DNA of 64,000 nucleotides, from contig JBDTNY010000127.1 in NCBI GenBank assembly GCA_039933515.1, positions 7,160 to 71,159 of the forward strand, in the 5' to 3' direction. This DNA is from Actinomycetota bacterium. GTDB taxonomy: Bacteria; Actinomycetota; UBA4738; HRBIN12. The notes beneath the pieces are model-generated. The model was not told where the DNA came from and did not search any database. It saw only the letters and a program-made list of their open reading frames with translations. A program made the position numbers and the translations under genes. Positions 2,998 through 18,313 of the stretch are shown here, piece by piece; the stretch's first letter is position 1, and each line of letters opens with the position of its first letter.

Positions 2998-4287
2998 ATG
3001 ACCTCTGGCGGCGGTGAGAAACCCTCGCGGCTCCGAGGTCTCGTTCTCGACATCACTCCGCTCCGTCGCTCCCACGACTTCCGGCTGCTGTGGGGCGGAC
3101 AATTCGTCTCCGAGCTCGGGTACCAGTTCGCCCGGGTCGCGATCTACGTGCAGGTCTGGGAGCTCACGAAGTCGCCCGCGGCCGTCGGGCTGACGGGGCT
3201 CACGGGGCTCGTCGCACTGTTCGGCGGGACCCTGACGGGGTCGTCGTTCATCGACGCGAAGGATCGCCGATCGATCCTGCTCTGGGCTCAGGTGGCCTTG
3301 GCGGTCTCGGCCGGCATCCTGCTCGGCGGCGCGATCGCCGGGCATCCACCGCTCGTCTTGATCTACGGCGCGAACGCCCTCACCGCCTTCGTCGGCGCGA
3401 TCGAGGATCCCGCGCGGTCCGCGATGATCCCCCGGCTCGTGGGCAAAGACCTGATCCCGTCCGCCCTGGCCCTGAACCAGGTGCTGTGGCAGACCGTCCA
3501 GATCGTCGGACCCGCGATTGCTGGCGTGTTGATCGCCCACTACGGGTTCGGGCTCGCGTACGGGGTCGACCTGGTCACGTACGGCGCGCTCTTCCTCGCC
3601 GCGTTCCTGATGGCGCCGATGCCCCCCGAACACGACCCGGACTCGGCGTCGGGATGGGCGGCCGTCAAGGAAGGGTTCGCCTTCGTTCGTGCCCACCGGC
3701 TGATCTCCTCCACGTTCGCGATCGACCTGATCGCGATGGTCTTCGGGATGCCGGCGGCGCTCTTCCCGGTCCTCGCGATCTCCCAGTTCCATCGCGGCCC
3801 CGAGGTCGTGGGGCTCCTGTTCGCCGCGCCGTCGGTCGGCGCCTTGGCCGGGGCTTTGTCGGGCGGCTGGGTCCGCCATGTTCGCCGGCAGGGCGAGGCC
3901 GTGATCTGGGCCGTGGCGGCCTGGGGCGCCGCGATCGCCGCGTTCGGGCTCGTGGGATCACACCTATGGTGGGCGCTCGGGTTCCTCGCCGTCGCGGGCG
4001 CGGCCGACGTCGTGAGCGCGATCTTCCGCTCCACGATCACCCAGGTGAACACGCCCGACCGATTGCGTGGGCGGCTCTCGGCCATCTTCATCTTGGTGGT
4101 GACGGGCGGGCCGCGGCTCGGGGACTTCGAGGCGGGCGTCGTCGCCACGCTGTTCTCGCCGACCGTCTCGGTGGTGAGCGGCGGGCTCGCCTGCATCGCG
4201 GGCGCGGGACTTGTGGCGATCGTGTACCCCCAGCTCCGCGCGTACCGCCCCGGCGTCGATGCGCCTCGCACGCCCGGCGAGCCATGA
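2998..4287 (+). CDS. MFS transporter (EntS/MFS_3-like)
   Basis: 429 aa, about 12 predicted TM helices. N-terminus RSHDFRLLWGGQFVSELG is typical of the enterobactin-exporter-like MFS family. Confidence 0.75.
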   Translation: MTSGGGEKPSRLRGLVLDITPLRRSHDFRLLWGGQFVSELGYQFARVAIYVQVWELTKSPAAVGLTGLTGLVALFGGTLTGSSFIDAKDRRSILLWAQVALAVSAGILLGGAIAGHPPLVLIYGANALTAFVGAIEDPARSAMIPRLVGKDLIPSALALNQVLWQTVQIVGPAIAGVLIAHYGFGLAYGVDLVTYGALFLAAFLMAPMPPEHDPDSASGWAAVKEGFAFVRAHRLISSTFAIDLIAMVFGMPAALFPVLAISQFHRGPEVVGLLFAAPSVGALAGALSGGWVRHVRRQGEAVIWAVAAWGAAIAAFGLVGSHLWWALGFLAVAGAADVVSAIFRSTITQVNTPDRLRGRLSAIFILVVTGGPRLGDFEAGVVATLFSPTVSVVSGGLACIAGAGLVAIVYPQLRAYRPGVDAPRTPGEP

Positions 4288-4372: not shown

Positions 4373-6076
4373 GTGACCGAGGCTGTCCGGGGGGTGGAGC
4401 TCCGCGTGCTCGACGGGCCCAACCTCTACTTCCCACGCCCCGCGATCAAGCTCACCCTCGCGGTGCCCGGCTGGATGCGCGCGTCCGAATCACGCGTCTC
4501 GGAGGTGGCCGGGCGACTTGGGCTCGAGGGGGCGGCGACGCCCGGCGCGCCCGGGTCCCAGCACCGGCGCCGGTTCGCCGCGCGGATCGCGGCCCAGCTG
4601 ACACGACGCCAAGCGATCGCATCGGGCGCGCGCCGGCTGGCCGTCAAGGCATCCCCGGGCAGCGGGCTCGATGAGATCGTGATCGCGTTCCCCTGGCGCC
4701 GGCGCGGCGCGGCCGAGGCGCTCGCCAGGGAGACGGCCCGCGGCATGGAGGCGATCCTTCGCCGCTCCCCCGACCGATGGGTCGCCGCGTCGGGACGCCG
4801 GCTCTCCGGCGCCGATCCTGGCCCCGAGCCCGCGGTTCCCGATCCGTCAGTCCCCGTGATCCAGGTCACGGGGACGAACGGGAAGACGACTTCCGTGCGC
4901 CTGCTCGCGCACCTGGTCCGCGCGGCGGGCCGAACAGTCGCCTACTCGACGACGGACGGGGTTTACCGCGACGACGGCGTGATGGTCGAGGCCGGGGACT
5001 ACAGCGGCTTCGGTGGCGCGGGGATCGCGCTCGCCCAGCACCCGGACGTCGCGGTGCTCGAGACCGCGCGCGGGGGCTTGTTGCTGCGGGGTAGCGGGGT
5101 GCTTCACAACGACGTCGCGGTCGTGACGAACGTGAGCGCCGACCACCTGGGGCTCCACGGGGTGGACACGGTCGACCAGCTCGCCGAGGTGAAGGCGATC
5201 ATCACGAAGACGACCCGGCCCAGCGGGTGGAGCGTGCTGAACGCCGACGATCCGCGGGTGCTGGCCATGCGGCGGCGCGCGACGGGACGGCTGTGGCTCT
5301 GCTCACCCTTCCCCGACCAGCCTGCGCTCCACGAGGTCCAGCAGGAGGGAGGGCGGGCGATGACCGTCCTCGACGGGTCGCTCACGTGGTTCGAGGATCA
5401 CGTCGCCCATCCCCTGCTGCCCGTCGAGGATGTCCCGGTCACCCTCGCGGGGATCTCTCGCACCAACACCCAGAACGCGCTCGCGGCCGCGGCCGCGGCG
5501 CTCGCCGTCGGGCTCGCCGAGCGCGCGGTCGTCCGGGGCCTGCGGGGCTTCGTCCTGGACCCCGAGCGCAATCCCGGGCGCACGAACCTGTTCCGGCTCG
5601 ACGGCAGGGTCGTGGTGATCGACTACGCCCACAACGAGGCGGGGATGCAAGGGCTCACCGAGGTGATGGACGGGTTGCGCAGCCTCGGGCGCGACGTCTG
5701 GCTCGCGATCTGCACCGCGGGAGACCGCACCGACGAGATCTTGCATGCCTTCGCGCTCCGCGCCGCGCTCGGATCCGATCATCTCGCGGTGGCCGACCTC
5801 TTGCGCTACCTCCGTGGACGCCATCGGGATGACATCGTCGCGCATCTCCGGGCCGGGGCGCGAGAGGCGGGGGTCGACGATGTGCCCGCGTACGAAGACG
5901 AGCTGCACGCGCTGCGCGGCATGCTGCACGAGAGCCACCGCGGCGACGTCGTGGGCGTCACCGCGCTCGGCATGCGGGCCGAGATCTTCGCTTGGCTCGA
6001 AGAGGCCGGCGCACGGCCGCTGGGTCCAGGGGACGTTCGGCGGATCGTGCGCGGTGCCCGGGCTTCGCGGACATAG
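4373..6076 (+). CDS. Cyanophycin-synthetase-like Mur ligase family protein (CphA N-domain plus M-domain, no ATP-grasp G-domain)
   Basis: The N-terminus ELRVLDGPNLYFPRPAIKLTLAV resembles the CphA N-domain start of the canonical CphA in this window (VFRGPNYWSYEPSIRLLVDLG). It has a Mur-ligase P-loop (VIQVTGTNGKTTS) and a DYAHN motif, and its C-terminal region aligns with the CphA C-terminus. No ATP-grasp segment lies between the N-domain and the ligase domain. The start could instead be the GTG at 4394. Confidence 0.65.
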   Translation: MTEAVRGVELRVLDGPNLYFPRPAIKLTLAVPGWMRASESRVSEVAGRLGLEGAATPGAPGSQHRRRFAARIAAQLTRRQAIASGARRLAVKASPGSGLDEIVIAFPWRRRGAAEALARETARGMEAILRRSPDRWVAASGRRLSGADPGPEPAVPDPSVPVIQVTGTNGKTTSVRLLAHLVRAAGRTVAYSTTDGVYRDDGVMVEAGDYSGFGGAGIALAQHPDVAVLETARGGLLLRGSGVLHNDVAVVTNVSADHLGLHGVDTVDQLAEVKAIITKTTRPSGWSVLNADDPRVLAMRRRATGRLWLCSPFPDQPALHEVQQEGGRAMTVLDGSLTWFEDHVAHPLLPVEDVPVTLAGISRTNTQNALAAAAAALAVGLAERAVVRGLRGFVLDPERNPGRTNLFRLDGRVVVIDYAHNEAGMQGLTEVMDGLRSLGRDVWLAICTAGDRTDEILHAFALRAALGSDHLAVADLLRYLRGRHRDDIVAHLRAGAREAGVDDVPAYEDELHALRGMLHESHRGDVVGVTALGMRAEIFAWLEEAGARPLGPGDVRRIVRGARASRT

Positions 6077-6127: not shown

Positions 6128-7633
6128 ATGCGCGCCCAACTAGACTCCGCCCCGATGGCATCGCCGCGAGGGTCCCGTTCCACCTCCGCCATGGAGGCCA
6201 AGGTCGTCGTCGCGTCCAACCGCGGGCCCGTGAGCTTCGACAAGGACCAGCGAGGCAGGCTCGTGGCTCGCCGGGGCGCCGGCGGGCTGGTCACGGCGCT
6301 GTCCGGGGTGTTCTACCGGGACGACACCTCGTGGATCTCGGCGGCGATGACCGACGGCGACCGCGCGGTGGCCCTGAAGGGCCGAACGGTCACCTCGGAT
6401 TCCCACCAACGCATGCGCTACGTGGTGATCCCCCCGGAGCGCTACGACGCCTACTACAACGAGATCGCCAACCGGATCCTGTGGTTCGTCCACCACAGTC
6501 TGTGGGACACGCCGCGCAGTCCGATGTTCGACGACGCGACGCAGGAGGCCTGGCATCACTACGTCGAGGCGAACCGCGCGTTCGCCCTCGCCCTGGCCGA
6601 CGAGGCGGCCGACGATCCCGTGTACCTGATCCAGGACTACCAGCTGTGTCTCGTGCCCGCGATGCTCCGCGAGCTCCAGCCCGACGCGAAGATCGCGCAC
6701 TTCTCGCACACCCCGTTCGCGGGGGCGACCTACCTCCGGATCCTCCCCGTCGAGATGCGCACAGCGGTGATCCGGGGGATGGCCGGCGCGGACGTCCTCG
6801 GATTCCAGTCGAAGCAGTGGGCGGAGAACTACCTTCTGTCGGCACGGAGCCTCAAGGGGATCCGAGTGCTGCGGGGGGGCCGGCTCGACGTTGACGGGCG
6901 GGTGGCGGCCGTACGGGCGTTCCCGGTGGCCGTGAGCGCCGAGCCGATCCGGGAGAGCGCCTCCCAGCCCGAGGCCGAGTCGGTGCGGGAGGAACTCCGC
7001 GCATGGGCCGGCGACCGTGCCGTGGTCCTGCGGGTGGACCGTCTCGAGCCCTCGAAGAACATCCTGCGAGGGTTCCTCGCGTTCGGGCTGTTCCTTCGCC
7101 GCTTCCCCGAGTGGCGTGAGCGCGTGCAGTTCCTGTGCCTGTTCAGCCCCTCGCGCGAGGAGGTGCCCGAATACCAGACCTACGGGGAGGAGTGTCTCGC
7201 CGAGGCCGAGCGCGTGAATCGGGAGTTCGGCACGAAGGACTGGACCCCGATCGAGGTCAAGGTCCAGGAGGACTATGCCTACGCGGTCGCCGCGTACGAC
7301 CTCTACGACGTGCTGTTCGTGAACCCCACCTACGACGGCATGAACCTGGTCGCGATGGAGGGACCGCTCGTCAACCGCCATGACGGCGTCGTGCTGCTGT
7401 CGCGGAACGCTGGTGCCTACACCAGGCTCGGCCGGCACGTGATCGGCGTGAACCCCTTCGACCTGGCCGAGACCGCCGAGGCGCTCGACGAGGCCCTGAC
7501 GCTGGCACCCGAAGACCGGGCGCGGCGGGCGCGCGGACTGGCGCGCACCGTGCAGGCACACACGCCTGCGAGCTGGCTCGCGAGCCAGCTCGAGGCGGTC
7601 GACCAGGTGCGGCCCCCCGGCCGTCCCCGCTGA
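6128..7633 (+). CDS. otsA: alpha,alpha-trehalose-phosphate synthase (GT20)
   Basis: GT20/OtsA signatures (VVVASNRGPVSF, LIQDYQLCLVPAMLRE, HFSHTPF, NPTYDGMNLVAMEG). The true start is probably the ATG at 6191 (MEAKVVV...). Confidence 0.85.
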   Translation: MRAQLDSAPMASPRGSRSTSAMEAKVVVASNRGPVSFDKDQRGRLVARRGAGGLVTALSGVFYRDDTSWISAAMTDGDRAVALKGRTVTSDSHQRMRYVVIPPERYDAYYNEIANRILWFVHHSLWDTPRSPMFDDATQEAWHHYVEANRAFALALADEAADDPVYLIQDYQLCLVPAMLRELQPDAKIAHFSHTPFAGATYLRILPVEMRTAVIRGMAGADVLGFQSKQWAENYLLSARSLKGIRVLRGGRLDVDGRVAAVRAFPVAVSAEPIRESASQPEAESVREELRAWAGDRAVVLRVDRLEPSKNILRGFLAFGLFLRRFPEWRERVQFLCLFSPSREEVPEYQTYGEECLAEAERVNREFGTKDWTPIEVKVQEDYAYAVAAYDLYDVLFVNPTYDGMNLVAMEGPLVNRHDGVVLLSRNAGAYTRLGRHVIGVNPFDLAETAEALDEALTLAPEDRARRARGLARTVQAHTPASWLASQLEAVDQVRPPGRPR

Positions 7634-7643
7634 ACCCAGATCC

Positions 7644-8381
7644 CTAGAGCCTGCGGAGCAGTCCGACCAGCCCGGCGGGCCCGTCCACCACGAGGTCGGC
7701 CGCGGCCGTGAGCGCCGGCGGCGTTTCCGGCCCGTGCACGGCGACCTTGACCGTCACGATCCCTTTGTCCGCGAGCTGGTCGAGGGTCTCGAACGCGCGG
7801 AGATCGGCGAGGTCATCGCCCGCGTAGAGCACCGCCTCGAGCTCCGCCTCAGCCACGATCGCCGCGACCGCACCTCCTTTGAGGGGGCGTCCCGCGGGAA
7901 CGAGCTCGAGCACCTTCTTGCCCGCGATCAGCTCCATGCCGGCCTCGGCCGCGATCGGGGCGAGCAGCTCGGCAAGCCGGGCCTCGGCGTCGGACGGGTC
8001 ACTCGTGGCCCGGTAGTGGGCCGCGATCGAACCGCCCTTGGGCTCGACCCGGACGCCCGCGATCGCCGATACGATCTCGCTCACCCGCTGCTCGAGCCCC
8101 TCGGGGAGCATCGCCTCGTCCTCGATCCCGTAGAGGGCGGCCAGCCGGACCCCGGGGACGCCGATCAGATCTTCGAGCTCGCGGCGGGTTCGTCCCGAGA
8201 CGACGGCGACCACCGCGTAACGCAGGGCAAGACGGGCGAGCGCATCTCGCGCGCCCTCACGGATCTGTGCGAGCTCGGGGCGGGCGACGATCGGGCTGAG
8301 ACTCCCGTCGAAGTCCACGAGGATCCCGACGCGCCCCTCGACGGCGGCGAACGCCTCGAGGGCGCGAGGCCTGGGCGACTC
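7644..8381 (-). CDS. otsB: trehalose-6-phosphate phosphatase (HAD-IIB)
   Basis: The C-terminal 246 aa of track ORF 7644..9287 is OtsB-like (ILVDFDGSLSPIV, LAGKKVLELVPAGRPLKGGAV, YAGDDLADLRAF). Start ATG at 8381 has a GGAG 7 nt upstream. The upstream 300 codons of the track ORF are antisense of the GH15 gene. Confidence 0.8.
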   Translation of the reverse strand, partial: ESPRPRALEAFAAVEGRVGILVDFDGSLSPIVARPELAQIREGARDALARLALRYAVVAVVSGRTRRELEDLIGVPGVRLAALYGIEDEAMLPEGLEQRVSEIVSAIAGVRVEPKGGSIAAHYRATSDPSDAEARLAELLAPIAAEAGMELIAGKKVLELVPAGRPLKGGAVAAIVAEAELEAVLYAGDDLADLRAFETLDQLADKGIVTVKVAVHGPETPPALTAAADLVVDGPAGLVGLLRRL

Positions 8382-8459
8382 CATCGATACTCCTGTCGTG
8401 GCGGTCGGGTGGCGATCTCCGCCAAATCCTAGTAGGCGGGGAGACCACCGATAGAGTGG

Positions 8460-10406
8460 GTGCCCGTGAGCAGCGCGTCCATCGTCCCCTTCCCCGGCGT
8501 AGCTGAGCCGCCTCCCGGCGGCGAGGTGTCCCCTCTGCAGAGCCGGCACGGCCCGTTCACTCCGATCGCGGAGTACGGGTTCTTGTCCGACCGCGAGGTA
8601 TCCGCGCTGATCGGCCCCAGCGGCAGCGTCGAGTGGCTCTGCCTGCCCAGGCCCGACAGCCCGAGCGTCTTCGGGGCGATCTTGGACCGGTCGGCGGGCG
8701 CCTTCCGGCTGGGGCCCGCCGAGCTCCTCGTGCCGGCGGGGCGCCGGTATCTCCCCGGCACGAACGTGCTCGAGACCACATGGCAGACCCGGACCGGATG
8801 GCTGCTGGTCCGCGATGCCCTCGTTCTGGGGCCTTGGCAGGACGAAGAACGACCCGAGGACTACACGCGCCCCCCCGGCGACTATCGGGCCTCGCACATG
8901 CTGCTCCGCGCCGTGCGCTGCGTCCAGGGCCAGGTCGATCTCGTGCTGAACTGCGAGCCGGTGTTCGACTACGGGCGCACCGATGCCCGATGGGAGTACA
9001 CGGGTCCCGGCTGGAGCGAGGCCCTCGCCACCGGCGGCAGCGGCGACCCGCATCTGCGGCTCACGACCGACATGCGCCTGGGCCTCGAGGGGCGCGCGGC
9101 GGTCGCGATCACCCGGCTGAACGACAACGAAGCCGCGTTCGCGGCCCTGTCGTGGGATGGCGACGTGAACCCGCCGCCGGCCGACGCCGAGGAAGCGTGG
9201 CAGATGATCCACGCGACCTCGGACTTCTGGCGCGGCTGGTTGAACAAGGGCGAGTTCCCCGACCATCCCTGGAGGAGCCATCTCCAACGAGCGGCGCTGA
9301 CCTTGAAAGGTCTGACGTACGCCCCGACGGGAGCCCTGATCGCCGCCCCGACGACCTCGCTCCCCGAGTCGGCGGGCGGCGAGCGGAACTGGGACTACCG
9401 CTACAGCTGGGTGCGCGACGCGACGTTCGCGCTCTGGGGCCTCTACTCGCTGGGGTTCGACTTCGAGGCCAACAGCTTCTTCTACTTCATCGCCGACCAG
9501 ATCCGCGATGGTTCGCCATTACACGTGATGTACGGGGTGGGCGGCGAGACCGAGCTCGAGGAATCCACGCTGGACCACCTCACCGGCTACGACCACGCGC
9601 AGCCCGTGAGGATCGGCAACGCCGCGTGGTCGCAGGACCAGCACGACGTGTGGGGCGCGCTGCTCGATTCGGTCTACCTGCATATGCGCTCGGGCGAGTT
9701 CCTCTCGGGCGTGACGTGGTCGGGCCTCGAGCGACAGGTCGAGCGCGCGATCGAACGATGGCGCGAACCCGACCGGGGGATCTGGGAGGTCCGCGGCGAA
9801 CCCCAGCACTTCACGATGTCGAAGATCATGTGCTGGGTGGCGTGCGACCGGGGCGCTCACCTGGCCGACGTGATGGACCGTCCGGAGCTCGCCGAGCGCT
9901 GGCGCACCGAGTCCGAGACGATCAAGGCTGACGTGCTCGCGCACGGGCTCGACGCGCGCGGCGTCTTCACCCAGGCTTACGGCTCGACGGCCCTCGACGC
10001 CTCCCTGCTCCTGGCTCCGCTGATGCGGTTCCTGCCCCCCGACGATCCACGGATCCGCGCGACCGTGCTGGCGATCGCCGACGAGCTCACCGACGACGGA
10101 CTCGTGCTGCGATACCACGTGGACGAGACCGACGACGGGATGCAGGGTCCCGAGGCGACGTTCGCGATCTGCTCGTTCTGGCTCGTGTCGGCGCTCGCCG
10201 AGATCGACGAGCTCGAGCGGGCGCGGGCGCTGTGCGAGCGGATGCTCGCCTACGCGAGCCCGCTGGGTCTCTACGCCGAAGAGATCGACCCGCGCACGGG
10301 ACGGCACTGGGGCAACTACCCGCAGGCCTTCACCCACCTGGCGCTGATCAACGCGCTCACGCATGTGATCCGGGCCGAGGAACGCCTGACCGAACGCCCG
10401 GGCTGA
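8460..10406 (+). CDS. glycoside hydrolase family 15 protein (trehalase/glucoamylase-type)
   Basis: GH15 catalytic-domain motifs (GALIAAPTTSLPESAGGERNWDYRYSWVRD, DVWGALLDSVY) and an N-terminal beta-sandwich (DREVSALIGPSGSVEWLCLPRPDSPSVF). Start uncertain: GTG at 8460 or a downstream GTG near 8527. Confidence 0.75.
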   Translation: MPVSSASIVPFPGVAEPPPGGEVSPLQSRHGPFTPIAEYGFLSDREVSALIGPSGSVEWLCLPRPDSPSVFGAILDRSAGAFRLGPAELLVPAGRRYLPGTNVLETTWQTRTGWLLVRDALVLGPWQDEERPEDYTRPPGDYRASHMLLRAVRCVQGQVDLVLNCEPVFDYGRTDARWEYTGPGWSEALATGGSGDPHLRLTTDMRLGLEGRAAVAITRLNDNEAAFAALSWDGDVNPPPADAEEAWQMIHATSDFWRGWLNKGEFPDHPWRSHLQRAALTLKGLTYAPTGALIAAPTTSLPESAGGERNWDYRYSWVRDATFALWGLYSLGFDFEANSFFYFIADQIRDGSPLHVMYGVGGETELEESTLDHLTGYDHAQPVRIGNAAWSQDQHDVWGALLDSVYLHMRSGEFLSGVTWSGLERQVERAIERWREPDRGIWEVRGEPQHFTMSKIMCWVACDRGAHLADVMDRPELAERWRTESETIKADVLAHGLDARGVFTQAYGSTALDASLLLAPLMRFLPPDDPRIRATVLAIADELTDDGLVLRYHVDETDDGMQGPEATFAICSFWLVSALAEIDELERARALCERMLAYASPLGLYAEEIDPRTGRHWGNYPQAFTHLALINALTHVIRAEERLTERPG

Positions 10407-10473: not shown

Positions 10474-11490
10474 TCAGGCAGGCTGCTCGTCGTGCCCGCC
10501 GAACCCCTTGCGCATCGCCGAGAGCACGCGGTTGGCGAAGTCGTCGTTGCCGCGCGAGGCGAAACGTGAGAACAGCGCGGACGAGAGCACCGGCGTCGGC
10601 ACGCCCTCGTCGATCGCGGCGATCGCGGTCCAGCGCCCTTCGCCGGAGTCCGAGACCCGGCCCTCGAATCCCTCGAGGTCCGCAGACGCGTTGAGGGCTG
10701 CCGCCGAAAGGTCCAGCAGCCAGGACGCCACCACGCTTCCCCGGCGCCACACTTCGGTGATCTCGGCGACGTCCAGGTCGTATCGGTAGAACTCGGGATG
10801 GGCGAGCGGCGCGGTCTCGGCGTCCTTCGCCCGTTCGGCGGTGCCGTCGTTCGCGTGATGCAGGACGTTCAAGCCCTCGGCGTAGGCCGCCATGAGGCCG
10901 TACTCGATCCCGTTGTGCACCATCTTCACGAAGTGGCCGGCGCCACCGGGGCCGCAGTGCAGGTATCCACGCTCGGCGGGCGTCGGGGCGCCGACGCGGC
11001 CCGGGGTCCGGGGGGCGGCGTCCGGTCCCGGGGCGAGTGAGGCGAAGATCGGTTCGATCCGCGCGAAGACCTCGGGCTCGGCCCCGACCATGAGGCAGAA
11101 GCCGCGTTCGAGCCCGAACACCCCGCCGCTCGTACCGCAGTCGACATGGTGGACCCCCCGCTCGGCCAGGAGCGCGGCGTGCGTGAGGTCGTCACGGTAA
11201 TAGGTGTTGCCGCCGTCGATCACCACGTCGCCGGGGTCCAGATGGCCCGCGAGCTCCGCGATCGTCGCCGACGTGATCTCGCCCGCCGGCACCATGACCC
11301 ACACCGTGCGCGGCGCGGTCAGCGCGTCGACGAGCTCGGCGATCGACGTCGCACCCGTCGCACCCTCGGCGGCGAGCAGGGTCACGGCGTCGGGATCGAC
11401 GTCGTAGCCCGCGCAGCGGTGCCCGTCGCGCATCAGCCGGCGAACGAGGTTGGACCCCATCCGGCCGAGCCCCACCATCCCCAGCTGCAT
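10474..11490 (-). CDS. gnd: 6-phosphogluconate dehydrogenase (decarboxylating), short YqeC/Gnd-like form
   Basis: The C-terminal 338 aa of track ORF 10474..12762 is Gnd-like (MQLGMVGLGRMGSNL Rossmann start, GGAGHFVKMVHNGIEYGLMAAYAEG). Start ATG at 11490. The rest of the track ORF reads through pgi in another frame. Confidence 0.8.
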   Translation of the reverse strand: MQLGMVGLGRMGSNLVRRLMRDGHRCAGYDVDPDAVTLLAAEGATGATSIAELVDALTAPRTVWVMVPAGEITSATIAELAGHLDPGDVVIDGGNTYYRDDLTHAALLAERGVHHVDCGTSGGVFGLERGFCLMVGAEPEVFARIEPIFASLAPGPDAAPRTPGRVGAPTPAERGYLHCGPGGAGHFVKMVHNGIEYGLMAAYAEGLNVLHHANDGTAERAKDAETAPLAHPEFYRYDLDVAEITEVWRRGSVVASWLLDLSAAALNASADLEGFEGRVSDSGEGRWTAIAAIDEGVPTPVLSSALFSRFASRGNDDFANRVLSAMRKGFGGHDEQPA

Positions 11491-11504
11491 CGGTCGGTCG
11501 GTCG

Positions 11505-13184
11505 TCACTGGCTCAGCTCCTTCCCGCCCCCGTCGCCGTGCTCCGCCGCACGCATCGCACGGTACCGGCGGATCAGTGCGTTCGTCGAACCGTCGTGAGC
11601 CAGGGCGGGCTCGTCGCCGGCAACGAGCTCGGGGACGATCCGCTGCGCGAGCGCCTTCCCGAGCTCGACCCCCCACTGATCGAACGGATCGATCCGCCAG
11701 ATCGCCGCCTGGGTGAACACGTCGTGCTCGTAGAGGGCGACGAGCGCCCCGAGGATCCGCGGGGTCAGTCGTTCGGCCAAGATCGTCGTGCTGGGCCGAT
11801 TCCCCTCGAAGACGCGGTGCGGCACCAGCCACCTGGGCGTGCCCTCGGCCCGGACCTCGTCGGCGGTCTTGCCGAACGCGAGCGCCTCGGCCTGGGCGAA
11901 CACGTTCGACATCAACAGATCGTGATGCCCTCCGATCGGGTTCAGGCTCTGGGCGAACCCGATCAGATCGAGTGGGATCAGCTGGGTCCCCTGGTGCAGC
12001 AGTTGGTAGAACGAGTGTTGCCCGTTCGTCCCCGGCTCGCCCCAATACACGGCGCCTGTCGGATGATCGACCGGCACGCCGTCGACGGTCACGTGCTTGC
12101 CGTTCGATTCCATCGTGAGCTGCTGCAGGTACGCCGGGAAGCGCGCGAGGTATTGGTCGTACGGCATGACGCCCCACGACGTGGTGCCGAAGAACCCCCC
12201 GTACCAGACCGCGAGCAACCCCTTGAGCACCGGCAGGTTCCGCGCGAACGGCGCCGTCCGGAAGTGCTCGTCCATCGCGTGGAACCCCGCCAGCATCTCG
12301 TGGAATGGACCGGGGCCGATCGCGAGCATCGTCGACAGCCCCACGGCCCCAGCCATCGAGTACCGGCCTCCCACCCAATCCCAGAACCCGAACATGTGGT
12401 CCGGGTCGATCCCGAAGGCCCGCACGCTGTCGAGCGCGGTAGAGACCGCCACGAAGTGCCTGGCGACCGCTGCCTCGTCGCCGAGCCCCTCGACGATCCA
12501 GCCGCGAGCGGTGCGCGCGTTCGTCATCGTCTCGAGCGTCGTGAACGTCTTCGAAGCGATGATGAACAGCGTCTCGGCGGGGTCGAGGTCGCCCGTCGCT
12601 TCGTCGAACGCCGTCGGGTCGACGTTCGAGACGAACCGGAACGTGAGGTCGCGCCTCGCGTAGGCCCGGAGCGCCTCGAACGCCATCGAGGGACCGAGGT
12701 CGGAACCGCCGATCCCCACGTTCACGATGGCGCGGATCGGCCGCCCGGTGTGGCCGAGCCACCCGCCGGAACGGACACGATCCGCGAACGCCGCCATGCG
12801 ATCGAGCACCTCGTGCACCTGGGCGCCGACGTCGACGCCGCCGACCTCGAGCGAGGTGCCCCGCGGCAACCGGAGGGCGGTGTGGAGCGCCGGCCGATCC
12901 TCCGAGACGTTCACGTGGTCTCCCCGGAACATCGCCTCGATCCGCTCACGGAGCCCGCGCGCCTCGGCCAACGCCACCAGCAACGAGATCGTCTCGTCGG
13001 TGACGCGATGCTTGGCGTGATCGAGGTACAGCCCCGCGCCCTCGGCCGCCATGCGCTCACCACGGCCGGGGTCTGCGGCGAAGAGCTCACGCAGGTGCCT
13101 CGGGCCGATCTCGGCATGGTGTGCCGCGAGGGCTCCCCACTCGGCCGTTCGGGTCAGCGGGGACGTGGCTCCCGGCGTACCCAC
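11505..13184 (-). CDS. pgi: glucose-6-phosphate isomerase
   Basis: 559 aa with PGI signatures ([43 protein letters not shown]). Confidence 0.9.
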
Positions 13185-13546: not shown

Positions 13547-16312
13547 TCAGCCGACCATGTCGGGGTCGCCGCCCGAGCCCTGGATCCCGCCCTCGTCCTG
13601 CGCGCGCAGCACCTCCGGCGAGGCGACACCTCGCCGCTGCTCGAGCTCCTTGAAGACGGCGGTCGCGTAGTCGACGCAGAGGACGACGAGGTCGCCGGGG
13701 CGCGAGCGATCCAATGCCTTGCGGGCGGCCTCCATCTCGTCGAGCTCGACCTCCACCGAGCCGGCACGCGCACCGCCCGCCGCCATCGCCTGCTCCACTC
13801 CCTCACGGATCAGCTCGGCGGTATCGCCCCGCTTCCTCCCGCGGGCGTGGCGATCCTCGCGCACGATCACGTCGTCGAAGTAGCGGGCGGCCACCCGGCC
13901 CAACTCGCGCATGTCCTCGTCGCGCCGGTCGCCGGCGGTCGCGACGACCGCCACGCGCAGGTTCGCGGTCCACGATGCCTCGCCGGGGCGCTCGCCGGAA
14001 GGCGCGTCGGCCGTGAGCCGTTCCACGAAGTCCCCCAGGGTATCGAGGCCCGCGGCGTTGTGGGCATAGTCGATCACGACGGTCACCCCGTCGATCTCGA
14101 ACACGTTCAAACGCCCGGGTGCCTGATAGATCGAGGTCGTGAAGGACCGGAGTCCCTGCCGGATGTCGTGGAGATGGGCGCCGCCGGCATGCGCGGCTGC
14201 GGCGGCGGCCATCGCGTTCTGCACCATCATGCGGGCCTTGCCCTCGAAGGTCGCGGGAAGGGTGTGCACCCAAGCGATCGGCATCGTCCGGCGCCCTTCC
14301 TTGATGACCATCATCTCGCCGCGGGGACCCTTTTCGAGCACGACAGCCTTGCGCCCCCGCCTGATCCACCGGTCCACGAACTCGTGCTTGTCGCGCATCG
14401 TGAACAGGATCACGTTGCCCGCGCAGTGGCGGCGCATCTCGAGCACCAGGGGATCGTCGGCATTGAGCACCGCGGTGCCGTTGCGCGGGACCGCCTCGAC
14501 CGGCACCTGTTTGACCGCCGCGAGCTGCTCGAGGGTCTCGATCTCGCGCAGGCCCAAGTGATCGCCCGTGACGTTGAGGACCACCGCGACGTCGTTGCGC
14601 TGATAGCCCAGTCCCTCCCGCAGGATCCCGCCGCGTGCGATCTCGAACACCGCGAGATCGACCCGGGGATTCTGCAGCACCATCTGCGCCGACTTCGGAC
14701 CGCTCGCATCCGCGCGGCGCACGAGGCGCTCGTCGATGTAGATCCCGTCCGTTGTGGTGACTCCCACGTCGTGGCCGATCCCCCGGAAGATGTGGGCGAT
14801 CATCCGGGTCGTCGTGGTTTTGCCGTTGGATCCGGTCACCGCGATGATCGGGATCCGGCTGGGCGTCCCGGGCGGGAACAGCCCGTCGACCACGTGCTTC
14901 GCGACGTACTGAGGCTCGCCTTCGGTGGGGTGCGTGTGCATCCGGAAACCGGGCGCCGCGTTCACCTCGATGATCGCGCCACCCGCCTCCCGCACCGGCT
15001 GCGAGATGTCGATCGCGAGGAAGTCGATGCCGGCGACGTCGAGCCCGACGACCCGGGCTGCCTCCTCGGCGATCTCGACGTTGTCCTCGTGCGCCTCCCA
15101 GGTTCGGTCGATCGAGATCCCCCCGGTCGACATGTTGCCGGTGGCCGCCAGCAGCACGCGCTCGCCCTTGGGCGGCACGTCGTCGATGCCGAACCCCTGC
15201 TTCCTCACCAGCTCAAGCGCGGTCTGGTCGACCTTGATGCGCGTCAAGACTTTCTCGTGGCCGATCCCCCGGCGCGGGTCCTGGTTCTCCTTGTCGACGA
15301 GCCATCGGATCGTGTGCTTGCCGTCGCCGGTTACATGGGCAGGCACACGCTCGGCGATCGCGACCATCCGTCCGCCGATCACGAGCACGCGGTAGTCGCT
15401 CCCCGTCACGAACGACTCCACCACGACGAAGCCGCGCCGCGACTCTTTCTGCGCGCGGCGGAACCCGGTGCGGACGGCGCGATCGGTGCGCAGGTCCAGC
15501 GCCACGCCGCGACCGTGGTTGCCGTCGAGCGGCTTCGTGACGACCGGGAACCCGATCCCGACCGCGGCCGCGACCGCGGCGTCCTCGTCCCGGACGACCT
15601 CGCTCCTGGGCACCGGCAGGCCCGCCGCCGCGAGCAACTTGGTCGTCATCTTCTTGTCGCTGGCGATGTCGACGGCGAGCGCGCTCGTCATCGACGTCAT
15701 CGTGGCGCGGATCCGCTGCTGATACTTGCCCTGGCCGAGCTGCACGAGCGAGTTTTCGTTCAACCGCATCCAGGGGATGTCGCGCGTCACGGCCTCGTCG
15801 ATGATCGCCTGCGTCGAGGGCCCGAACTGACGACGCTCCGCGAGCAGGATCAACCGCTCGAGCTCGGCGTCGAACTCGAAGCCGAGCTCCGCCTTGATCA
15901 GGTGGTTCACGAGCCGGACCGCGAGCTTGCCGGCCTCGACCCCGACCGTCTCCTCGGCGTAGCCGTAGATCACGTTGTAGTGGCCGGGCTGCCCCGCGCT
16001 CCGCGTCTTGCCCCGCGAGATGTGGGCGCCCGACTCGCGTTGCAGCTCGAGCGCCACGTGCTCGGCGACATGCCCGAGCCACGTGCCGTCTTCGAGTCGC
16101 TCTCGGAACCCGCCGCGCTTGCCGAGCGAACAGGAGTGTTCCCCGACACCGGGGAGGGCCTTGAGGAGCTTCGTGTTGAAGCCCCGGATCGTGTTAGAGG
16201 GCCAGTGTTCGAGCGACCCGAGGTCGACGAGCAACCGGATGCTGGGCTCGTAGGACCAGTAGTTCGGCCCGCGGAAGACCTGGGCCTGCACGATCGTGAG
16301 GTCGGGCCGCAA
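13547..16312 (-). CDS. cphA: cyanophycin synthetase
   Basis: Full three-domain CphA: N-domain (VFRGPNYWSY), ATP-grasp G-domain (DKKMTTKLLAAAGLPVP, PVVTKPLDGNHGRGV, IEVNAAPGFRMH) and Mur-ligase M-domain (IIAVTGSNGKTTTT, VIDYAHN). The track ORF 13547..16459 has no ATG near the N-domain. Start placed at in-frame TTG 16312 (or GTG 16291) so it follows the cphB stop. Confidence 0.85.
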   Translation of the reverse strand: MRPDLTIVQAQVFRGPNYWSYEPSIRLLVDLGSLEHWPSNTIRGFNTKLLKALPGVGEHSCSLGKRGGFRERLEDGTWLGHVAEHVALELQRESGAHISRGKTRSAGQPGHYNVIYGYAEETVGVEAGKLAVRLVNHLIKAELGFEFDAELERLILLAERRQFGPSTQAIIDEAVTRDIPWMRLNENSLVQLGQGKYQQRIRATMTSMTSALAVDIASDKKMTTKLLAAAGLPVPRSEVVRDEDAAVAAAVGIGFPVVTKPLDGNHGRGVALDLRTDRAVRTGFRRAQKESRRGFVVVESFVTGSDYRVLVIGGRMVAIAERVPAHVTGDGKHTIRWLVDKENQDPRRGIGHEKVLTRIKVDQTALELVRKQGFGIDDVPPKGERVLLAATGNMSTGGISIDRTWEAHEDNVEIAEEAARVVGLDVAGIDFLAIDISQPVREAGGAIIEVNAAPGFRMHTHPTEGEPQYVAKHVVDGLFPPGTPSRIPIIAVTGSNGKTTTTRMIAHIFRGIGHDVGVTTTDGIYIDERLVRRADASGPKSAQMVLQNPRVDLAVFEIARGGILREGLGYQRNDVAVVLNVTGDHLGLREIETLEQLAAVKQVPVEAVPRNGTAVLNADDPLVLEMRRHCAGNVILFTMRDKHEFVDRWIRRGRKAVVLEKGPRGEMMVIKEGRRTMPIAWVHTLPATFEGKARMMVQNAMAAAAAAHAGGAHLHDIRQGLRSFTTSIYQAPGRLNVFEIDGVTVVIDYAHNAAGLDTLGDFVERLTADAPSGERPGEASWTANLRVAVVATAGDRRDEDMRELGRVAARYFDDVIVREDRHARGRKRGDTAELIREGVEQAMAAGGARAGSVEVELDEMEAARKALDRSRPGDLVVLCVDYATAVFKELEQRRGVASPEVLRAQDEGGIQGSGGDPDMVG

Positions 16313-16383: not shown

Positions 16384-17253
16384 TCACTCCGACGCCTCCC
16401 GCTCGGCCGCGAGCGCCCGCGGCCCCGCCAGCAACTCGCGTCGCCGCAGGTCGAACCAATACCCGCTCGGAAGGGAGTGCAGCACCGCGCCCGACACCAT
16501 GAGCGGTTTATACCCCTTCCCCCGATAGGCGTCGGTCTTGACGTGCCGGCCGTCGACGATCGTCACGGCGCCGCGACCGATCACGTGCAGCGTCCCGTCT
16601 TCGAAGACGATCGCGCTGGTGTCCTCGTCGAGGCCGAGGCCTAGGAGCGCGGGGGATTGCGCCACCAGGGCCATCAACCTGCCGATCCGGCCGCGCTGTT
16701 CGAAGTGCTGATCGACGACGAGGCCGCTCAAGATCCCGAGCCCCGCCGACAGCTGCACCATCCGGTGCTTCGGGGTGGGGCCGGCCGCCCCGAAGGCCAG
16801 CATGTGGCTCGCAAGCGCGCTCGCGCCGGCGCTCGTGCCGGCGAGCACCGCGCCTCGATCCCGCGCGAGGAACAGCCCATCGCCCACGCGCGTGCCGGCG
16901 ATCACCTGCGTGAGCCGGGACTGGTTCCCGCCGGTCAGGAACACGCCGGTCGCGTCGCGCAGGGCCGCCGCGGCGTCGGGATCATCGGCCTCCTCGCGCT
17001 CTTCGGGGTGGAGGCCGCTCACCCGGCCGATGCCCAGCCCGGTGAAAAGCTCCCGATACATCTCGGTGGCTTCGCTGCCGAGCGAGGACGCCGTCGAGAT
17101 CACGACGACGTGGCCGTCGGCGCCGCCCGCGAACTTCGCGAATCGGGACAGGATCACCTTGTCGCGGAACTTGTCCTCGGCCCCGCCGATCAGCATCACC
17201 GGGCCCGCCGTGCCCAGGTTCGCGATCGACCGGAGGTCACGGCCCGTCGTCAT
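16384..17253 (-). CDS. cphB: cyanophycinase (peptidase S51)
   Basis: 289 aa with S51 cyanophycinase motifs (MLIGGAEDKF, VFLTGGNQSRL, AVLAGTSAGASAL). Immediately upstream of cphA on the same strand. Confidence 0.85.
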   Translation of the reverse strand: MTTGRDLRSIANLGTAGPVMLIGGAEDKFRDKVILSRFAKFAGGADGHVVVISTASSLGSEATEMYRELFTGLGIGRVSGLHPEEREEADDPDAAAALRDATGVFLTGGNQSRLTQVIAGTRVGDGLFLARDRGAVLAGTSAGASALASHMLAFGAAGPTPKHRMVQLSAGLGILSGLVVDQHFEQRGRIGRLMALVAQSPALLGLGLDEDTSAIVFEDGTLHVIGRGAVTIVDGRHVKTDAYRGKGYKPLMVSGAVLHSLPSGYWFDLRRRELLAGPRALAAEREASE

Positions 17254-17300
17254 CAGCGCAGTGTAGCGGCCGGGTCCGGGCAGGCCGCTATCCTGCGGCG

Positions 17301-18218
17301 ATGACGTCGTTCTCGCTGCCGCTCACCGGTCCCGCCGGCGAACCCGTGGACCTTGTTCGGACGCTCTCCTCCCATGGATTCGCCGACCTCGCCCCCCTGC
17401 GGCTCGATCAGGCCGCCCGCACGCTCGAGCTCACCCTCAGGCTGCGGCGCGGACGGCCTCGGCGGGTGCGCGTCGGCCCGGGGCCCGGGCGCCGGGCGAG
17501 CGTGGAGATCCTGGGCCCCGCGGCGGGGCCGCGAGTGGCCGCCGAGGTCGTGGCCGGGGTCCGAAACGTGCTCCGGCTCGACCAGGATCTCTCCCGCTTC
17601 TACGAGCGAGCGGAGGAGGATCCCGAGCTCGCGTGGGTCACGTATGGCGCCGGCAGGATGCTCCGCAGCCCCACGGCCTTCGAGGACGTCGTGAAGACGG
17701 TCTGCACCACCAACTGCGCGTGGAGCGCCACCGTCCGGATGGTGCACGCGCTCGTGACGCACCTCGGCGACCCGGCGGTGGCCACGCGCGACCCGCTGGC
17801 CAACGCGTTCCCCACGCCCGCGGCGATGGCGGCGGCGCCGGAGGGCTTCTACCGGGACACCGTGCGCGCCGGGTACCGGGGCGCCTACCTGCGCCGGTTG
17901 GCCACCACGGTGGCGAGCGGCGATCTGGACCTCGAGGCGCTCGCCGCGGCCTCGGCCGACGCCCTCCCCGATAGCGAGCTCGAGGCGCAGCTGCTCGCGC
18001 TGCCCGGCGTTGGGCCCTACGCAGCCGCCCACATCATGATGACGATGGGGCGGAACCACCGGCTGATCCTCGACAGCTGGACCCGGCCCACCTACGCGCG
18101 CGCGTGCGGGCGCACCGCTGCGGTGTCCGACGCCACGATCCGTCGGCGGTTCGCCCGCTACGGCGACCATGCGGGGCTTGCCTTCTGGCTCTTCCTCACG
18201 CGCGACTGGGTCGACTAA
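17301..18218 (+). CDS. DNA-3-methyladenine glycosylase II family protein (AlkA-like, HhH-GPD)
   Basis: HhH motif LALPGVGPYAAAHIMM followed by a Gly/Pro-rich loop and Asp. AlkA-like N-terminal region. Confidence 0.55.
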   Translation: MTSFSLPLTGPAGEPVDLVRTLSSHGFADLAPLRLDQAARTLELTLRLRRGRPRRVRVGPGPGRRASVEILGPAAGPRVAAEVVAGVRNVLRLDQDLSRFYERAEEDPELAWVTYGAGRMLRSPTAFEDVVKTVCTTNCAWSATVRMVHALVTHLGDPAVATRDPLANAFPTPAAMAAAPEGFYRDTVRAGYRGAYLRRLATTVASGDLDLEALAAASADALPDSELEAQLLALPGVGPYAAAHIMMTMGRNHRLILDSWTRPTYARACGRTAAVSDATIRRRFARYGDHAGLAFWLFLTRDWVD

Positions 18219-18313
18219 CGAGGGTTGCCCTGCACCGCGAACGGAGCGCATACTGAGCCGGGCCCACCGGGCCCACCCCCGAACGAAACGAGCGATCCGA
18301 TGACGGTGCCCTT

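Follow-up and report, generated by a model that had tools for sequence, protein, structure and literature searches.

A cyanophycin synthetase paralog lacking the ATP-grasp domain lies near cyanophycin genes in an Actinomycetota genome and in relatives from other phyla

We analyzed a 64,000-nucleotide stretch of an Actinomycetota genome (the window), in which a gene at 4373..6076 on the forward strand encodes a paralog of the cyanophycin synthetase CphA1. The protein joins a CphA-type N domain to an intact Mur-type M domain and has no ATP-grasp G domain, so its architecture is the mirror image of CphA2. This N+M arrangement had been proposed as the inverse of the CphA2 class in an earlier note made from the sequence alone, and it holds by Pfam, by the CphA1 model TIGR02068, by profile-profile alignment with hhalign, and by a Foldseek search with an AlphaFold2 (AF2) model. 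Related G-less proteins (lacking the G domain) are encoded in association with cph genes across five phyla, namely Actinomycetota, Chloroflexota, Myxococcota, Gammaproteobacteria, and Acidobacteriota. We consider it probable, judging from sequence and predicted structure, that the window protein is an ancient, catalytically competent CphA1 paralog and an ATP-dependent amide ligase that works beside CphA1 and cyanophycinase, acting on cyanophycin or its fragments and possibly with an amine other than arginine. Cyanophycin is synthesized from Asp and Arg by CphA1 and, in cyanobacteria only, is re-polymerized from dipeptides by CphA2; cyanophycinase breaks down the polymer and the dipeptidases IadA, IaaA, and CphZ carry out the final step. 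The conservation of an intact G-less paralog in or beside cph clusters of at least five phyla points to a step absent from this scheme, in which the polymer may be modified, capped, primed, or salvaged.

The open reading frame (ORF) starts with GTG and encodes 567 residues. Pfam places Mur_ligase_M at residues 165-376 (69.7 bits, gathering cut-off 24) and Mur_ligase_C at residues 402-530 (32.7 bits, cut-off 28.4), both above their gathering scores, which makes the protein a member of the Mur ligase superfamily. An ATP-grasp domain, named by the earlier note as one of the findings that would speak against its reading, was not detected by Pfam in the 567-residue protein, and residues 1-160 gave zero Pfam matches even at E<=10. 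The TIGR02068 alignment is likewise confined to model positions 477-846, which correspond to the M domain. In the AF2 model, which was built from 57 sequences (predicted local distance difference test score 96.4, predicted template modeling score 0.94), a 12-residue Pro-rich linker leads from the end of the N domain, at about residue 147, to the first strand of the M domain at residue 162. The features therefore follow one another on the forward strand as the N domain (residues 1-147, 4373..4813), the Pro-rich linker (residues 148-160, 4814..4852) at the site of the ~325-residue ATP-grasp G domain of CphA1, the Mur-ligase core, or Mcore (residues 161-398, 4853..5566), and the Mur-ligase C-terminal lid, or Mlid (residues 399-567, 5567..6073). 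The two motifs quoted by the earlier note are present, the P-loop region VIQVTGTNGKTTS at residues 162-174 (with the P-loop GTNGKTT itself at residues 167-173, 4871..4891) and DYAHN at residues 417-421. Because the G domain is absent, the protein cannot extend a poly-Asp backbone by the CphA1 route.

The relationship of the N domain to that of CphA1 is remote. The N-terminal resemblance to the CphA1 of the window that had been pointed out earlier is, by BLASTP, a 20-residue high-scoring segment pair with an E-value of 0.13 and is not significant by itself. The Pfam model for the CphA N domain (PF18921) had no match in the window protein or in 57 diverse relatives, and a hidden Markov model (HMM) made from 20 family members matched CphA1 sequences of the Protein Data Bank (PDB) in one stretch of the M domain only (263 bits), leaving the N domain unmatched. 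Homology of the N domain is thus not demonstrable by Pfam or HMMER sequence search, and it is only profile-profile and structural methods that detect it. Residues 1-147 form a conserved domain in the family alignment, and hhalign matched 49 family N-termini to 16 CphA1 N domains with a probability of 97.6%, an E-value of 3.6e-12, and a score of 74.9 over 144 columns, essentially the full N domain; 30 column shuffles and a reversal scored no more than 11.3. Foldseek aligned the AF2 model with the full-length Synechocystis enzyme SuCphA1 (7lg5_A) at a query-normalized template modeling (TM) score of 0.81 over 884 columns. Since alignments confined to the M domain stayed at or below a TM score of 0.63, both domains, N and M, superpose jointly as they are arranged in CphA1, and the alignment passes over the G domain. 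The claim of a CphA-like N-terminus therefore stands at the level of profiles and structure, where it is significant, and not in the pairwise resemblance first given for it.

In CphA1, the N domain carries a Cx19HxxEH motif that belongs to a primer-generating metallopeptidase (PMC9262961). The HxxEH part aligns with R-I-A-A-Q at residues 71-75 of the G-less protein in the hhalign comparison, and the G-less protein therefore lacks the metallopeptidase activity; the CphA1 of the window keeps the motif. The N domain has a conserved hairpin, ELRVLDGPNLYFPRPAIK. We also considered whether the Arg-rich N domain of the window protein (net charge +11) binds polyanions or naked poly-Asp, and rejected this as a family property: net charges range from +5 to +14 in the window's own subclade and from -20 to +11 across diverse members, and the only conserved charged residues are E9, R11, D14, and K26, all in the first hairpin.

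The M domain is CphA-like in its affinity and complete in its catalytic residues. It scored 328 bits against TIGR02068, which lies under that model's curated cut-off of 850, and 78 bits against the best MurE model. All NCBIfam scores for MurE, MurF, MurT, and FolC were far under their cut-offs (71 bits against 257 for the MurE model TIGR01085). BLASTP aligned residues 153-544 with the CphA1 of the window at 38% identity (E 6e-59), and in neighbor-joining with MurE as the outgroup, 100 of 100 bootstraps set all CphA-type M domains apart as one clade distinct from MurE. Grouping with MurT, CapB, or FolC, which would have told against a CphA origin, was accordingly not what we found. CphA1 M domains have 77 positions with a conservation of 85% or more, and the family keeps the CphA1 residue at 61 of them.

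Residues K499, T500, T522, and E558 of TeCphA1 bind ATP and Mg, with R731 and H748 contributing from the lid (PMC9427784). Their counterparts in the window protein, K171 and the Mg ligands T172, T194, and E230 in the core and R403 and H420 of the lid, which contact the ATP phosphates, are conserved, as is K274 of the core. An SuCphA1 D585A/H586A variant has an inactive M domain (PMC9262961), and the equivalent D257-H258 (5141..5146) is conserved as well. The P-loop, Mg ligands, and DH motif of a CphA1-type M domain are therefore all present, and the suggestion that the active site is intact is confirmed for every known catalytic residue. Changes specific to the family within the core are a Gly in place of S542 and an Arg at the position following R566 of CphA1.

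The lid also departs from CphA1. An alignment with MurE sequences from the retrieved loci equates one lid segment with S-D-N-P-R of MurE, in which the DNPR motif recognizes the incoming amino acid, as seen in MurE structures. CphA1 has an invariant acidic pair here, E800/D801, just before R805-G-R807 (E-D-x-x-x-R-G-R). The G-less family has lost this pair and gained an inserted, invariant Tyr479, giving Y479-L-R-G-R483 (5807..5821) in place of E-D…R-G-R. From this difference, we infer that the nucleophile pocket is unlike that of CphA1. The segment that would read the incoming amine is remodeled, and the amine, which may be another compound, is thus probably held in a way unlike arginine in CphA1. 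The same observation makes it less likely that the enzyme re-decorates the polymer with Arg or Lys, as the earlier note proposed.

The family is large and uniform in length (~555-595 aa). An exhaustive search of representatives at 50% identity recovered diverse full-length members at 33-63% identity. Source annotations are generic and go no further than "Mur ligase family protein", "Mur ligase", "UDP-N-acetylmuramyl tripeptide synthase", or "cyanophycin synthetase". The family is found across Kribbella, a cultured genus that includes K. flavida DSM 17836, and also in Terrabacter. The same search returned a second class of ~565-580 aa (class 2, from Myxococcota, Gammaproteobacteria, and Acidobacteriota) with its own N-terminal part of ~170 residues starting "RRLTGPNL". 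Class 2 shares with the window family its length, the N+M architecture, Y-L-R-G-R, R239, G215, and the linkage to cphA1 and cphB. It differs in having only ~37% identity in the M domain and a more divergent N-terminal part, alignable over about 80 columns (hhalign 98%, 82 columns), and its gene is the last of a cph operon whereas the window-family gene is convergent to the cph genes. In M-domain trees, CphA1, the G-less family, and class 2 are about equidistant (35-37% identity). This equidistance and the 38% identity to its own CphA1 indicate that the window protein is an old paralog, by sequence, and not a recent truncation of the neighboring cphA1. Neighbor-joining with the MurE outgroup gave low support to either placement of the G-less classes, as sister to the CphA1 M domains or nested among them, with G-less monophyly in 31 of 100 bootstraps and CphA1 monophyly in 22 of 100.

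A small subclade of class 2 (P0181, residues 4-273, and also P0282 and P0373) matches DUF4938 (PF16292), with the match covering the N-terminal part and the start of the Mur core. DUF4938 is therefore part of the same superfamily as the G-less paralogs; the window protein itself does not match it.

The link to cyanophycin proved stronger than the proximity of about 8 kb on which it had first been based. In 15 of 16 informative loci of the window family (the window; L001, L003, L005-L009, and L011; L081-L083; L088, L089, and L091), cphA1 lies within ~10 kb and is usually convergent, and cphB is present in every case where the flank extends far enough to include it. These loci are from Actinomycetota metagenome-assembled genomes (MAGs), Kribbella including K. 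flavida DSM 17836, Terrabacter, a Nocardioides-related lineage, and Chloroflexia, and their proteins are 39-74% identical to the query. For class 2, all four loci that were seeded only by the G-less protein have an operon of the form Amidohydro_1 (IadA-type dipeptidase)-cphB-cphA1-X, X being the G-less gene, with gaps of 5-80 bp. The order cphB-cphA1-X was also found in Luteimonas, Lysobacterales, a gammaproteobacterium, Plesiocystis, and Steroidobacteraceae. The other neighbors vary by lineage: the clade of the window has trehalose genes and gabT-MFS, and Propionibacteriales have two SDR genes and a dodecin gene. We rejected gabT, the MFS gene, otsA, and otsB as functional partners, as they occur in close relatives only and, in loci of the Kribbella type, SDR genes and dodecin take their place; being lineage-specific, these neighbors are uninformative on function.

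The CphA1 proteins encoded beside G-less paralogs are intact. Cx19HxxEH is present in 19 of 22, and the M-domain P-loop and DH motif in 21 of 22, the exception being the Thermoanaerobaculia locus L075. The paralog is therefore an addition to CphA1 and not the replacement of a broken M domain. In Tetrasphaera MAGs, a "longer" and a "shorter" cphA copy beside cphB were both transcribed in an activated-sludge metatranscriptome, the shorter at a lower level (PMC10687191). That study reports the copies without domain analysis, and its shorter copy likely belongs to the G-less family.

A reaction consistent with these features can be outlined. A carboxylate of cyanophycin, or of a fragment of it, would sit in the groove between the N and M domains and be activated, at the expense of ATP, as an acyl phosphate. 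An amine held by the lid would then attack the acyl phosphate to give an amide, and, given the remodeled DNPR-equivalent segment, it would be held otherwise than arginine is in CphA1. Three reactions would fit: the addition of a non-Arg residue onto a terminal Asp, the addition of Arg by way of a differently built pocket, and a Mur-type re-ligation of beta-Asp-Arg. Several observations weigh against the amide-ligase proposal or parts of it. The Sphaerobacteraceae locus (L010) has no cphA within its available flank, and the Actinomycetota gene is convergent to cphA-cphB and not co-transcribed with it, with 3-9 kb of unrelated genes that can intervene. The assignment of E800/D801 to the arginine pocket of CphA1 comes by homology to the MurE DNPR motif and not from a structure of CphA1 with arginine, so the argument about the amine is correspondingly qualified. 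Lastly, the N domain is fast-evolving beyond the first hairpin, and polymer tethering may not be conserved.

The paralog might act in trans as a ligase that finishes the polymer with the same activity as the CphA1 M domain, adding Arg (or Lys) to unmodified Asp side chains left by CphA1; re-decoration with Arg or Lys had been proposed in the earlier note. The Arg-adding domain of CphA1 has its closest relative in the M domain of the paralog, which keeps the catalytic set and the R-G-R of the lid motif, the N-M arrangement is that of CphA1, and the linkage to cph genes is conserved, all as such a ligase would have them. We nevertheless regard it as unlikely: at the site equivalent to DNPR, both G-less classes have lost the invariant acidic pair of CphA1 and have gained a conserved Tyr, and the activity would be redundant beside partner CphA1 proteins with intact M domains.

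The paralog could instead be a Mur-type backbone ligase that re-polymerizes beta-Asp-Arg or adds dipeptides to primers, which would make it, outside the cyanobacteria, a functional analog of CphA2 that uses the other catalytic domain. Mur ligases, for instance MurC, MurD, and MurF, commonly activate C-terminal alpha-carboxylates of peptides, and a remodeled nucleophile pocket would suit a bulkier amine such as a dipeptide. Class 2 operons also include cyanophycinase and the IadA-type dipeptidase, which make and consume the dipeptide, and in a small sample of cyanobacterial loci none had a G-less paralog beside cphA. This reading is, however, purely inferential, and with no residue-level sign of a switch from beta- to alpha-carboxylate we judge it rather improbable.

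A third reading, in which the paralog is the missing half of a split synthetase and supplies M activity in trans to a CphA with a defective M domain, is very unlikely, and complementation of that kind is rejected for the window locus, where the P-loop and DH of CphA1 are intact, as they are in 21 of the 22 partnered loci. It draws on one Thermoanaerobaculia MAG (L075:9410-14997), in which a G-less N+M protein lies beside a CphA without the M-domain P-loop and DH, followed by cphB; unlike the window arrangement, this may be a genuinely split synthetase. There is similarly little probability that the protein is a scaffold without catalysis or a Mur-type ligase unrelated to cyanophycin (acting on the cell wall, a folate-like compound, or a different polymer), placed near cph genes by historical accident. 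The generic source annotations and the Sphaerobacteraceae locus might suggest so, but the linkage persists across five phyla while other neighbors change, the M domain is of the CphA and not the MurE, MurT, or FolC type, and the invariant catalytic residues speak against a scaffold.

An amide ligase on cyanophycin or its fragments thus remains our preferred reading, and a broader proposal may be built on it. The G-less paralogs of Actinomycetota, Chloroflexota, Myxococcota, Gammaproteobacteria, and Acidobacteriota could conceivably be a fourth, overlooked class of cyanophycin enzyme that attaches a non-Arg residue to the polymer or its ends or re-ligates dipeptides, a possibility that we put forward tentatively and would not yet favor. 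If it were true, the native cyanophycin of these bacteria would be chemically unlike the textbook Asp-Arg polymer. Cyanophycin is under development as a biomaterial and for nitrogen recovery, and an enzyme able to alter its composition or yield would have practical value. The presence of the family in cultured strains (Kribbella flavida DSM 17836, Terrabacter) brings the question within direct experimental reach.

Compared with known systems, the window protein is nearest to CphA1 (TIGR02068; PDB 7LG5 and 7WAC), with which it has in common the N fold, the N-M arrangement, the M catalytic residues, and the gene neighborhood, the M domains being 33-38% identical. It differs from CphA1 in lacking the G domain and the Cx19HxxEH of the N domain and in its Y-L-R-G-R lid segment. 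CphA2 (PDB 7TA5) is likewise a reduced CphA paralog that has a non-catalytic N domain and co-exists with CphA1. It is defined by an active G domain and a truncated, inactive M domain (PMC10273328); the window protein, in contrast, has no G domain and an M domain complete with its lid, and so is not a CphA2. Relative to MurE (PDB 1E8C), the protein has neither the N-terminal UDP-binding domain nor DNPR. The component domains and their chemistry are known, but the literature that we searched has no description of the architecture, of the altered pocket, or of the conserved membership in cph clusters: work on CphA1, CphA2, cyanophycin bioinformatics, and the Mur superfamily neither describes nor names a G-less CphA, and published descriptions of cph clusters give two or three genes and omit this one. 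The name "cphA3" is used in published work for an Aeromonas beta-lactamase.

Other unusual cphA arrangements were seen among the retrieved loci. Tandem cphA pairs with complementary loss of motifs occur in Betaproteobacteria and relatives (L031, L036, L038, L043, L045, L049, L059 from Nitrosomonas europaea, L066, L069, and L070). The upstream copy (~730-780 aa) keeps the N-domain Cx19HxxEH and is without the M-domain P-loop and DH, and the downstream copy (~875 aa) keeps the P-loop and DYAHN and is without HxxEH, with the DH pattern unmatched. This pattern of sequence motifs suggests that the pairs may be obligate heteromers. In relatives of the window organism, a small gene for a DksA/TraR-type zinc finger directly adjoins cphA (L081:13967-14299 and L082:20621-20902). 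The long-read MAG contigs L081-L083 carry many fragmented genes (aldehyde dehydrogenase, MFS, otsA, and cphA), as frameshift errors would produce; none of the three has a broken G-less gene.

The start of the window gene probably lies slightly inside the longest ORF. An identical protein at NCBI, also from an Actinomycetota MAG (P0001), has 560 aa and begins seven codons downstream, at GTG 4394. GTG 4394 is the more likely start than GTG 4373, as it is preceded by GAGG at 4379-4382, a plausible ribosome-binding site. The DNA is high in GC and a scan for promoters and terminators was uninformative.

The gene neighborhood is as the earlier note gave it, going by the ORF positions and by Pfam and NCBIfam matches. 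An MFS gene lies on one side (2998..4287), and on the other are otsA (6128..7633) and, on the reverse strand, a trehalose phosphatase gene (7644..9287). The canonical CphA1 is encoded at 13547..~16312 (reverse strand), has N, G, and M domains, and scores 1166 bits against TIGR02068; the cyanophycinase gene cphB follows at 16384..17253, also on the reverse strand. Two reverse-strand ORFs look over-extended. In the 547-aa ORF at 7644..9287, the match to trehalose phosphatase is limited to residues 321-546 (the otsB product of relatives has 248 aa), and in the 762-aa ORF at 10474..12762, the match to 6-phosphogluconate dehydrogenase is limited to residues 425-761. Immediately upstream of cphB and on the same strand, a 332-aa ORF (17253..18251) is without a Pfam or NCBIfam match and has a 42%-identical counterpart near cphB in L001.

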